The notes beneath the pieces are model-generated. The model was not told the DNA's origin. It was given only the letters and a program-made list of their open reading frames with translations, and searched no databases. Positions 9,775 through 32,261 of a stretch of DNA of 64,000 bases are shown piece by piece; the stretch's first letter is position 1; the number at the start of each line of letters is the position of its first letter. Location of the stretch: positions 30,713 to 94,712 of IMG/VR virus record IMGVR_UViG_3300047493_000037. The stretch is one strand, 5' to 3'. Origin of the DNA: a virus. Taxonomy: Duplodnaviria > Heunggongvirae > Uroviricota > Caudoviricetes. The position numbers and the translations under genes are program-made.

Positions 9775-10341
9775 ATGAAAACACAAATTAGAACACTTAA
9801 ACTTAAGCTCAAAGACCTTGCCTCTCAAATTAAAAATCAAAAGAATGTCCGAAAGAAGTCTCATCCTGCTCACGCAGATGTTTACAGTGGCGACTACTCC
9901 CTCTCTTGTTTAAGAGAATCGTATCGTTATCATCATGTTGCTTATTGTCTAGCAAGGGGTCGAACCCTTGAATCAGTAGATAGTGGGGCAGGTTTAAATA
10001 TGGAACGCGTAAATTGGATCCTAAAGTGCATCGAACCAGAGTCTAGAGAGAAGCTTTACGTTGTTGTTAACGAAACCCTATCACCATCTCAGCAAGCCGT
10101 ACAATCAGCACACGCTGTAGCTGAGTTCATGAGAAAGAATCCACACACACTTTGGGCCAACGGATACCTCATCCTATTAAAGGATAGACCTTTATTTGGC
10201 GACAACATGTCTAGTAGATGGCATATGCCAGGAATAGAACGTGCAGAATTCATTGAACCAGATCTTAGCAACAAGATTACGGCTTACGCATGTTTTGGGC
10301 ACGGCGTAGAGAATCTCATGAAAAATCACAAATTGGTATAA
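9775..10341 (+). CDS. PTH2-like (peptidyl-tRNA hydrolase fold) protein with an N-terminal phage domain
   Basis: The C-terminal half KLYVVVNETLSPSQQAVQSAHAVAEF...LILL...FIEPDL...ITA matches phage PTH2-like proteins. AGGAG RBS. Confidence 0.6.
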   Translation: MKTQIRTLKLKLKDLASQIKNQKNVRKKSHPAHADVYSGDYSLSCLRESYRYHHVAYCLARGRTLESVDSGAGLNMERVNWILKCIEPESREKLYVVVNETLSPSQQAVQSAHAVAEFMRKNPHTLWANGYLILLKDRPLFGDNMSSRWHMPGIERAEFIEPDLSNKITAYACFGHGVENLMKNHKLV

Positions 10342-10348
10342 TATCAAC

Positions 10349-10502
10349 GTGTAGCATCTCGGATAGACGAGAAAACCAGTGGGAATGATCTAAATAAATA
10401 CGCTGAACAGACCGAGGCCATACTAGTTGGGCCGTATAACAGTATCGGGGCAGGCGGAGACACAACTCCAAGATCAGTGAGACTCGAAATCTCACCTACA
10501 CA
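10349..10502 (+). ncRNA. About 154 nt tRNA-shaped ncRNA with a large insertion in place of the anticodon arm
   Basis: Starts 7 nt after TATAAT (10337-10342). GTGTAG/CTACAC end pairing, TCTC-GGATAGAC-GAGA D-like arm, TGATCT/AGATCA helix, and GTGAGA-CTCGAAA-TCTCAC T-like arm. Confidence 0.55.
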
Positions 10503-10518
10503 TATTTAAAGGATTAAC

Positions 10519-10659
10519 ATGAAGAGCAGTGAACGATTAGTTTATCTTGTCATCATAGCAGTAGGTCTACTATGGATGTCATCTCAATTTAGTCGATTCA
10601 CTGCTCACTATGACTATCTTTTAGCTCAACTAGACTATATTAACTCTCACTGTAAGTAA
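10519..10659 (+). CDS. 46 aa membrane peptide
   Basis: AAGGA RBS; MKSSERLVYLVIIAVGLLWMSS has one hydrophobic helix. Too short for the ORF track. Confidence 0.55.
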   Translation: MKSSERLVYLVIIAVGLLWMSSQFSRFTAHYDYLLAQLDYINSHCK

Positions 10660-10660
10660 T

Positions 10661-10736
10661 GGTCCCATAGCTCAGCGGCCAGAGCGGCAATCTCTAAAAT
10701 TGTGCGTCGTGGGTTCGACTCCCACTGGGACCTCCA
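10661..10736 (+). tRNA. tRNA-Sup(CUA), amber suppressor
   Basis: Canonical 76 nt cloverleaf: GGTCCCA/TGGGACC, GCTC/GAGC, GCAAT-CTCTAAA-ATTGT (anticodon CTA), GTGGG-TTCGACT-CCCAC, U73 and CCA. Confidence 0.9.
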
Positions 10737-30340: not shown

Positions 30341-32261
30341 TTTAACATTTGAGCAGCAGAAGAAGTTGCTTCTTACTCCTTGCAAGACTAGGCAACAGGT
30401 AAAGAACTGGATCAAGTATCACTTGGCTTTGGAGTTGCCTGATGTTACTGTATCGAGGTTCTCAGACACCAATCCTTTAGATGTTATTTGGGAAGTGTAT
30501 CGCATTTGTACTCTCAAGCAAAACCCTGACAATATCCAAGAACTTCTATTCGTCGCTGGCCGTGGTTCTGGTAAGACTCTTGGTATGGCTATTGCAGAAC
30601 TTATGGTTTTGTTGCATGACCATCGTGATGTCGTGCATGTTGGTGCAATTCAAAATCAAGCTGAGCGATGCTATGCTTATCAGAAGGGCTTTCTATATAA
30701 TCGTAGATTAAAGCCCATTGTTACTCCTATGGATGTGCCAGAGGATCAACGCATTCTTGAAAAAGCTAATATGTCTAAGTCACTCTTTAATATTGGTGGT
30801 GAAAAGAAGACTATTGAGGTTATTCCATGCACATTAAAGGCCGTTAACGGTCCTCACGTGCCTCTTGTTGTTATCGATGAGATCGATACTGTGTCTGGTG
30901 AAGGCATTAAGGCATTTAAAGATATCGCTGGCATGTTAGACTCTAAGGGTGGTAAAAAGGCTCTTCGTGTGGGTATTTCTACGCGTAAATCTCGTTATGG
31001 CTTAATGAATCAAAAGCTTGAAGAGATAGAATCTACGCCAGACAAGACGCGCCAAGCCCGTAGATGGACAGCATTTGAGTTCACCGAACGCTGTCCTGAT
31101 AGTAGATCTGGAACCACTGAGTTAGATCTTTATGTTAATCAAGACAAGATGGAAGTTCTCACCGAAGAACAGTATTTAAAGAAAGATAATAATAAGCAAA
31201 AAGAATATGTAATGCATAGAGGATTTGACGGTTGTGTTAAATGCCCACTGTTCTCTGTGTGTTTAACTGATGCTAAAAAGCAGACCTCCAAATCGCCCAT
31301 GTTGAAATCTCTTGATGAGATGATTCAAAAGGTTAGAGCTGAAGGTGCAGATTGGGCTCTAGCTCAGCTCATGAACTTAAAACCTTCTGTTGAAGGTATC
31401 GTTTTTAGGGAGTTTGAAGAAAAAGTTCATGTTAAAACATGGAACGAAATGTGGCAAACATTAGTAGGTAAGCCATTCCCCGGCGAATGTACTCATGATA
31501 TTTTCGTTAAGAAGTGCCACGAGCTAAATATTCCTTGTTACGCTGGCATTGACTGGGGTTTCTCATCACCCAATACAGTAGTCTTTTTCTTTGTTGATTC
31601 TAGAGATAACATATATGTTGTGAAAACTGACGGTATGACATATGTTAGTTCACCAACTTGGATTCACCATATTAAGACTAAGTATCACACCTTGTATAGG
31701 TGCCAACTTTATGTTCCTGATGCTGCTGATCAAGGCTCCATTCAGGAAATGCAGAAGGCGGGTCTACCTGTAGCTAATCAGCCAGATAAAGGACAGATTA
31801 ATACCGGTATTCAAGTTATTAAGAAGTTCTTGAAGATGCCAGGTACAACAGAACCAAAGATTTTCTTAGCCAAAGACCACTGTCTTCCTTTGGTAAGAGA
31901 GTTTAGTCTGTATCACTACAAAGTGGATGCCGCAGGACTGATTACGGATGATCCAGATACTGAGCATGATCACTGGCTAGATGCTTTAAGATATCCAATG
32001 ACATTGCTGTTTGGGAAGTCCCAGATCATCTTAGGGAGCGGTTTGATAGATCAGGGCGCTGGTTTACAGGACACACAGGGCAATTTCCAGAGAATGCCAA
32101 CGCCTACTGAGTACGCGCTAACTCAAGGAATAAGAATGAATGATCAAGAGCCAGATAGATCTAAGTTGGGCAAAATAGGCACAGCAAAAGAGCTAGATGA
32201 AGCAAAAGATGACGATGATGACGGAATTGGTGGCGGTGGTGGCTTCATTTGGAGCGTTTAG
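30321..32261 (+). CDS. terL: Terminase large subunit
   Basis: AGRGSGKT, LVVIDEID, nuclease motifs GIDWG and HDHWLDALRY; upstream of the portal. Confidence 0.93.
   Translation: MAKTPSNLTFEQQKKLLLTPCKTRQQVKNWIKYHLALELPDVTVSRFSDTNPLDVIWEVYRICTLKQNPDNIQELLFVAGRGSGKTLGMAIAELMVLLHDHRDVVHVGAIQNQAERCYAYQKGFLYNRRLKPIVTPMDVPEDQRILEKANMSKSLFNIGGEKKTIEVIPCTLKAVNGPHVPLVVIDEIDTVSGEGIKAFKDIAGMLDSKGGKKALRVGISTRKSRYGLMNQKLEEIESTPDKTRQARRWTAFEFTERCPDSRSGTTELDLYVNQDKMEVLTEEQYLKKDNNKQKEYVMHRGFDGCVKCPLFSVCLTDAKKQTSKSPMLKSLDEMIQKVRAEGADWALAQLMNLKPSVEGIVFREFEEKVHVKTWNEMWQTLVGKPFPGECTHDIFVKKCHELNIPCYAGIDWGFSSPNTVVFFFVDSRDNIYVVKTDGMTYVSSPTWIHHIKTKYHTLYRCQLYVPDAADQGSIQEMQKAGLPVANQPDKGQINTGIQVIKKFLKMPGTTEPKIFLAKDHCLPLVREFSLYHYKVDAAGLITDDPDTEHDHWLDALRYPMTLLFGKSQIILGSGLIDQGAGLQDTQGNFQRMPTPTEYALTQGIRMNDQEPDRSKLGKIGTAKELDEAKDDDDDGIGGGGGFIWSV

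Follow-up and report, generated by a model that had tools for sequence, protein, structure and literature searches.

A covarying structured RNA of tRNA-like topology in a variable slot between a PTH2-fold gene and an amber-suppressor tRNA gene of large uncultured phages

The 64,000-nucleotide stretch of phage DNA considered here (the window; positions 30,713 to 94,712 of IMG/VR record IMGVR_UViG_3300047493_000037, Caudoviricetes, a record of 176.8 kb) almost certainly contains a genuine non-coding gene of about 154 nucleotides (nt), at 10349-10502 on the plus strand inside a 177-nt intergenic gap, which represents a real and uncatalogued structured RNA family. At the level of secondary structure, the fold is a four-way junction with the topology of transfer RNA (tRNA), in which helices P1, P2, P3, and P7 are placed as acceptor, D, anticodon, and T stems. 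The family has been found in only one clade of large uncultured phages, where it is an accessory cassette in a variable slot between a gene for a protein of the peptidyl-tRNA hydrolase 2 (PTH2) fold and a suppressor tRNA gene. This RNA slot and a palindromic loop, L5, that covaries among homologues are the new elements of the present analysis.

Folding of the single sequence gives a modest gain over shuffled sequences (z = -2.07), and the case therefore rests on the comparison of homologues. Ten distinct copies of the element were assembled (the window, six IMG/VR contigs, one JGI metagenome contig, and two ENA contigs) from loci gathered either via the metagenome relatives of the upstream protein or via DNA patterns drawn from the conserved 5' portion; all ten lie directly downstream of the same PTH2-like gene. 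A covariance-model search covering about 190 loci around PTH2-like genes places full members only at loci whose PTH2-like protein is at least about 54% identical to that of the window, and recognizes two further loci, L026 and L027, as distant relatives of the family (E = 0.001 and 0.05). Two DNA patterns run against IMG/VR returned no members beyond those reached via the neighbouring gene, the remaining matches being chance. The element is unmatched among GenBank phages by blastn, where the suppressor tRNA alone finds matches; no copy occurs in 185,579 prokaryote genomes, and no second copy was found in the phage genome itself. Literature searches returned no description of the RNA, nor of a PTH2-fold gene paired with a suppressor tRNA.

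In the model-based alignment of the ten members, 96.6% of cells are paired, and 22 of 41 pairs show compensatory (double) changes, in 42 cells; none of 500 shuffles reached this level, and shifted-register controls gave at most four double-change pairs. A structure-independent MAFFT alignment analyzed with RNAalifold yielded 42 pairs, 22 of them with compensatory changes. By helix, the double-change pairs amount to 5/7 in P1, 4/6 in P3, 3/5 in P4, 2/4 in P5, 4/4 in P6, and 4/5 in P7; P2 is unchanged in sequence in all ten members, and in the distant relatives L026 and L027 its stem is GUAC/GUAC with the loop retained. G-U pairs appear in the family only when the plus strand is read and no frame is open throughout all members, so the constraint is on a plus-strand RNA; coding on either strand is likewise rejected, as no frame stays open across members. 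The features of the RNA are as follows.

10349-10354 (+): 5' strand of P1, the acceptor-like terminal helix; GTGTAG pairs with CTACAC at 10496-10501
10355-10356 (+): CA joining P1 to P2, invariant in the 10-member alignment
10357-10372 (+): P2, D-arm-like hairpin with an invariant loop, TCTC-GGATAGAC-GAGA; stem 10357-10361 / 10368-10372
10373-10385 (+): J2/3, conserved 13-nt single-stranded junction AAACCRNUGGGAA, near-invariant in the 10 members
10386-10476 (+): insert domain closed by P3; TGATCT (10386-10391) pairs with AGATCA (10471-10476)
10402-10404 / 10453-10455 (+): 3-base-pair (bp) helix in the insert
10412-10415 / 10445-10448 (+): P4, helix CCGA/TCGG
10416-10419 / 10430-10433 (+): P5, hairpin stem GGCC/GGCC
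10420-10429 (+): L5, 10-nt loop with the centred palindrome ACUAGU (10422-10427), candidate kissing-loop site
10456-10469 (+): P6, hairpin GGAG-ACACAA-CTCC; stem 10456-10459 / 10466-10469
10477-10495 (+): P7, T-arm-like hairpin stacked on P1, GTGAGA / CTCGAAA / TCTCAC; stem 10477-10481 / 10491-10495
10484-10487 (+): UCGA in the P7 loop (L7)
10496-10502 (+): 3' strand of P1, CTACAC (10496-10501), then an unpaired A at the discriminator position; CCA is not encoded

At the junction, P1 and P2 are separated by 2 nt and P7 directly abuts P1, and the stacked P1 and P7 together comprise 11-14 bp across the family. P3 closes a domain of about 80 nt that holds the short helix, P4-P5, and P6. The unpaired 3' base is A in nine of the ten homologues and C in L075.

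Much of this fold had been anticipated by a first-pass annotation made from the sequence alone. The pairing of the ends (GTGTAG/CTACAC) is borne out by the compensatory changes in P1; the T-like arm GTGAGA-CTCGAAA-TCTCAC indeed abuts the 3' strand of P1 to give a 12-bp stack in the window sequence, and the D-like arm is present where it had been placed. The closing helix TGATCT/AGATCA, the CCGA/TCGG helix, and the GGAG-ACACAA-CTCC hairpin are all present and covary across the ten homologues. An ATACT/AGTAT helix, which had also been proposed, is 68% paired and matched by 78 of 500 shuffles, no better than chance. For a GGCC bulge said to be complementary to a GGGCC loop, the pairing is real and covaries; the suggested pseudoknot is not, since the two strands form the plain stem of the P5 hairpin. 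The annotation's view of the element as an undescribed structured RNA family agrees both with the extent of covariation among the homologues and with Rfam 15, in which no family, including tmRNA (transfer-messenger RNA), Y RNA, and the ribozymes, matches the element at the gathering score or at E <= 10.

The first-pass annotation also described the layout as tmRNA-like, and this stands as a statement of topology: as in tmRNA, an acceptor-like helix sits on a T-like arm, and a structured insert takes the place of the anticodon arm. At the level of secondary structure, P1, P2, P3, and P7 form a four-way cloverleaf junction with stacked acceptor and T stems. Membership of either class, tRNA or tmRNA, failed on every defining feature tested. 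The tmRNA model (RF00023), which scored 295.8 bits on the E. coli RNA as a positive control, matched only the T-arms of tRNAs in the whole phage genome and nothing on 10349-10502 at E <= 10. As the annotation had noted, there is no G3-U70 pair, the third pair of P1, counted from the inferred 5' end (columns 5 and 166 of the alignment), being G-C in 10/10 members, no tag open reading frame (ORF), and no encoded CCA; every internal frame stops or shifts in several members, there is no aligned resume codon or stop, and the canonical T-loop GGUUCGAnUCC is missing. Identity as tmRNA was rejected on these grounds. Identity as tRNA was rejected because the tRNA model (RF00005) and ARAGORN are silent on the element, ARAGORN finding only the neighbouring tRNA(CUA), and because P3 closes an extended domain instead of a seven-nucleotide anticodon loop. 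With no anticodon loop, tag ORF, alanine identity pair, or conserved T-loop, the RNA can therefore neither decode nor act as tmRNA does. The family covariance model weakly detects true tRNAs and a neighbouring tRNA look-alike that has no anticodon, which fits a tRNA-like core without tRNA membership.

At closer range, the P2 loop resembles the tmRNA D-loop consensus GGaUUCGAC (GGAU.GAC in the phage RNA), and AUCUCGGAUAGACGAGA may be set against the tmRNA 5' consensus GAucuGGaUUCGACggga. The flanks of the GGAUAGAC loop, however, pair with each other in the phage RNA, while the partner of the equivalent tmRNA segment is the 3' region, and the phage RNA has 154 nt compared with about 360. Genes for SmpB, Ro/TROVE, RtcB, and a CCA-adding enzyme are absent from the phage genome (the TROVE controls were positive).

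The loop of P5 is 10-12 nt long across the family and is palindromic in a manner that changes from member to member: ACUAGU in five, UUCUAGAA in one, CUUAAG in two, UUCGAA in one, and CUAG only in one. The changes between homologues are symmetric double substitutions. When the loop is paired with a second copy of itself, three column pairs are 86.7% complementary with six double changes, a level reached in 0/500 shuffles, although two members are offset by one column; composition-preserving shuffles of L5 gave values of 0.03-0.15 per loop type. A palindrome of this kind cannot fold on itself within a 10-nt loop, and pairing of two copies is therefore the simplest reading; no complementarity between L5 and L7, L2, or L6 inside one molecule was found on inspection by eye. 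The covariation of the palindrome thus suggests self-association through a kissing-loop contact, comparable to that of the HIV-1 dimerisation loop, which is homotypic and palindromic. The P7 loop also contains a palindrome of 4-6 nt in every member (UCGA, CUCGAG, UGCA, AGCU, or UAGCUA). Its sequence is not conserved, with CUCGAAA in six members, a CUCGAG variant in one, and UAU-NGCN-UA in three. Copies of the RNA would then associate through L5, and perhaps L7, as kissing-loop dimers or larger assemblies, a step to which we give close to an even chance.

The RNA appears to open a transcription unit, whose promoter and neighbouring genes are as follows.

10334-10342 (+): extended -10 promoter TGGTATAAT, overlapping the TAA stop of the upstream gene; box in 10/10 homologues
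9775-10341 (+): gene for the 188-amino-acid PTH2-fold protein with a basic helical N-terminal extension; AlphaFold model and fold search
10519-10659 (+): 46-amino-acid hydrophobic ORF, optional module of the RNA's transcription unit, present after the RNA in 6/10 homologues
10661-10736 (+): amber-suppressor tRNA(CUA), conserved downstream partner of the PTH2-fold gene; ARAGORN, Rfam

The intergenic gap that holds the RNA is thus bordered by the PTH2-fold gene and the 46-amino-acid ORF, and the tRNA begins 2 nt past the ORF. The sequence GTATAA[T/A/G] lies 4-7 nt ahead of P1 in all ten members, in three of them without overlapping the upstream stop codon. In the window the TGGTATAAT box ends 6 nt before the element; its TATAAT occupies 10337-10342, with G10349 as the seventh base after it, exactly as first annotated. 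The phage genome has 96 boxes of the GTATAAT type, often with TG in front, and many leaderless genes share the arrangement of GTATAAT, 6 nt, and ATG; many boxes lie exactly 6 nt from an ATG, which implies that leaderless mRNAs are widespread in this phage. Since the spacing from box to start is the same as at the leaderless ATGs, G10349 is likely to be the transcription start. No -35 element was found before the RNA, and neither a promoter box nor a terminator is seen between the RNA and tRNA(CUA).

The 46-amino-acid ORF starts 10-17 nt after P1, usually without a Shine-Dalgarno sequence, and is missing in four of the ten members, in which the tRNA starts 6-20 nt past P1. In most relatives the ORF has a conserved A/U-rich leader (CAAAUUUAUG) in front of it in place of a Shine-Dalgarno sequence; its product ends in a conserved ...SHCK, and in L029 its start codon is AUU. 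The ORF is two genes from the endolysin gene (9121-9570) and may be lysis-related. The RNA, the ORF, and tRNA(CUA) would form one unit transcribed from G10349 with the RNA as its 5' module, and a stable RNA with paired ends would be released by cleavage in the A/U-rich spacer and the RNase P cut of the tRNA; we regard this arrangement as reasonably probable. An arrangement of the type of bacteriophage T4 rnaC, in which a small non-decoding RNA whose ends pair sits beside a tRNA gene and probably shares its transcript, would fit the position of the phage RNA and the fact that no promoter or terminator is seen in between.

The upstream protein has no Pfam or PDB match by sequence. Its AlphaFold model (predicted local distance difference test score, pLDDT, of 92) gives top PDB fold matches that are all peptidyl-tRNA hydrolase 2, at probability 1.00; PHROGs gave weak partial matches (E about 1e-5), one of them to a family labelled 'hydrolase', and the protein has many metagenome relatives. 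Of 74 distinct loci, whose PTH2-like proteins are 28-69% identical to that of the window, 59 have a tRNA(CUA) no more than 900 nt downstream of the gene; the distance between the two is often 11-70 nt, and the pair is deeply conserved. In some relatives (L012, L017, L023, L191) a tandem pair of tRNA(CUA) genes follows the slot. Of the 28 tRNA genes of the phage, 24 are grouped in a single region of the minus strand (record positions 104.6-112.9 kb), and tRNA(CUA), the suppressor, is isolated in the present island about 63 kb away.

Across loci, the PTH2-like gene and the tRNA are separated by 11 to 844 nt. In the clade of the window, the slot that follows the same box is either empty or occupied by end-paired RNA, and the RNAs fall into at least nine kinds that share no nucleotide similarity. 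These RNAs, at loci L016, L018, L022, L023, L028, L030, L084, L191, L192, and L193, measure 30-230 nt, are closed by a terminal helix of 6-14 bp, and sometimes occur two in tandem; many begin with GUGCRG and end with CYGCAC-A, as does the present family. A hairpin whose loop reads GGAURGAC or GGAGAGAC recurs directly after the terminal helix (L026:3069-3214, L027:1373-1528, L193). This recurrence of the first hairpin in otherwise different RNAs may indicate a wider superfamily in which a shared core carries exchangeable insert domains.

Several known RNAs share parts of this architecture. The look-alike at 9593-9675 of the window, 700 nt upstream in the same genomic island, is also promoter-driven, non-decoding, and tRNA-shaped, and it flanks the same PTH2-fold gene. 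It differs in having a full tRNA body with a closed hairpin for the anticodon loop and is present in most members of the clade, whereas the RNA described here carries an insert of about 80 nt and occurs in some relatives only. Phage T4 encodes two small stable RNAs, species 1 and 2 (rnaC and rnaD), of 139 and 119 nt beside its tRNA genes (PMC3014915). In rnaC, as in the phage RNA, the ends pair next to a T-arm hairpin and there is a large insert, and rnaC (L210:2409-2547) folds at z = -4.6. However, rnaC has a canonical GGGUUCGAAUCCC T-arm, which the phage RNA does not, and the phage RNA differs from both T4 RNAs in its own 5' promoter, D-like hairpin, and palindromic loop. Homology to these RNAs was rejected, the family model scoring 3.6 bits on rnaC and finding nothing on rnaD.

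YrlA RNAs likewise have ends paired into a stem and a tRNA-like module (PMC4201824), but the tRNA mimicry of YrlA comes from canonical T-arm and D-arm sequences, which the phage RNA does not have. Assignment to Y RNA or YrlA was rejected, with no Rfam match and no TROVE domain in the phage genome. ROOL, GOLLD, the manA motif, and the phi29 pRNA are RNAs of phages and prophages, often encoded near tRNA genes, that form homo-oligomers via loop-loop contacts; kissing-loop assemblies of phage-associated RNAs, some shorter than 200 nt, have recently been solved (PMC12286853; bioRxiv 10.64898/2026.07.01.735769). The covarying L5 palindrome suggests that the same principle may operate in the phage RNA. 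There is no sequence or model similarity, and the proposed L5 contact would be homotypic and palindromic, not heterotypic; membership in the ROOL, GOLLD, manA, or pRNA families was rejected for want of an Rfam match.

Taken as a whole chain, the preferred reading is that of a released, trans-acting, non-decoding tRNA mimic or scaffold that would associate with itself via L5 and bind a tRNA-recognising protein, and it is put forward tentatively. Its last step, in which the RNA would act in trans as a mimic or scaffold for the PTH2-fold neighbour or for a host tRNA-targeting factor, is possible, though on its own we judge it rather unlikely; an accessory role, possibly in counter-defence, is considered because related phages hold unrelated RNAs or none in the slot. 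A bolder version, in which the RNA is an own-promoter cassette of a fast-evolving slot whose kissing-loop dimers or RNA-only assemblies with tRNA-like ends would counter tRNA- or translation-targeting host factors as decoys or scaffolds, making the slot an undescribed RNA-based counter-defence locus, is speculative and improbable.

Several observations weigh against the tRNA-mimic reading. With a T-like loop that varies between members and a D-like loop of non-standard type, a tRNA-like elbow is putative; the stack of P1 and P7 varies in length across the family and is not fixed at 12 bp. Both ends of the RNA, and that it exists as a discrete species at all, are deduced from sequence. There are about four independent types of L5 palindrome and L075 retains only CUAG, while the L7 palindromes by themselves are weak evidence, not reaching significance. 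No physical link joins the RNA to the PTH2-fold protein, which is present in many phages that do not carry the RNA. Finally, the long near-invariant single-stranded junctions would also be in keeping with an RNA that binds a ligand or is catalytic.

Among the alternatives, a cis-acting 5' leader that is never released, and that controls the stability, processing, or translation of the 46-amino-acid membrane ORF together with the maturation or timing of the suppressor tRNA, ranks highest, although we consider it improbable. It would explain why the RNA comes first in the unit after the promoter, with no promoter or terminator seen before tRNA(CUA), why the ORF begins so close to P1 and usually without a Shine-Dalgarno sequence, and why other end-paired RNAs fill the same leader position in relatives. 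Yet four of the ten members have no such ORF to control, and several relatives dispense with a leader altogether, their promoter standing immediately ahead of the tRNA; neither a conserved alternative pairing that involves the start region nor a terminator-like expression platform was seen, and about 50 near-invariant unpaired bases plus a covarying palindromic loop exceed the needs of a stabilising leader. A small-molecule riboswitch or new self-cleaving ribozyme heading the operon would lie, as the RNA does, immediately after a promoter, and multi-helix junctions with long near-invariant unpaired strands are characteristic of ribozymes and aptamers; we think this reading quite unlikely: no known class is matched, no terminator-like site follows the element and the start region is outside the fold, the downstream content varies between ORF and tRNA, and unrelated RNAs occupy the slot in close relatives.

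A miniature tmRNA, or ribosome-rescue RNA, that enters stalled ribosomes, perhaps together with the PTH2-fold hydrolase, would account for the layout, for the resemblance of AUCUCGGAUAGACGAGA to GAucuGGaUUCGACggga, and for the adjacent gene of peptidyl-tRNA-hydrolase fold, but it has very little to recommend it when the tmRNA model finds no match, the alanine identity element is replaced by G-C in all ten members, the phage has no SmpB, no frame or aligned stop is conserved, the T-loop varies between members, and the GGAUAGAC loop has flanks that pair with each other. An interrupted (intron-containing) or decaying tRNA gene is suggested by the cloverleaf topology and by the real tRNA and tRNA look-alike nearby; it is highly improbable, as no tRNA or group I intron model matches, removal of the insert leaves no anticodon stem-loop, and the insert is the best conserved and most strongly covarying part of the RNA, the opposite of decay. 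The palindromes ACTAGT and TCGA could also belong to an element acting as DNA, such as a protein-binding site or an origin, or the structure could be due to chance; to these we assign a negligible likelihood, because seven separate helices show compensatory changes, only the plus strand tolerates G-U pairs, and the palindrome varies in sequence from one homologue to another, a variation incompatible with recognition by a sequence-specific DNA-binding protein.

Non-decoding stable RNAs in the tRNA regions of phages have been known since RNAs C and D of T4 (PMC3014915), to which the present family adds a well-defined case, with strong covariation, a clear promoter, a core of tRNA topology, and a candidate loop for self-association. 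That close relatives swap unrelated RNAs into the slot points to an accessory role for these RNAs, possibly in an arms race.
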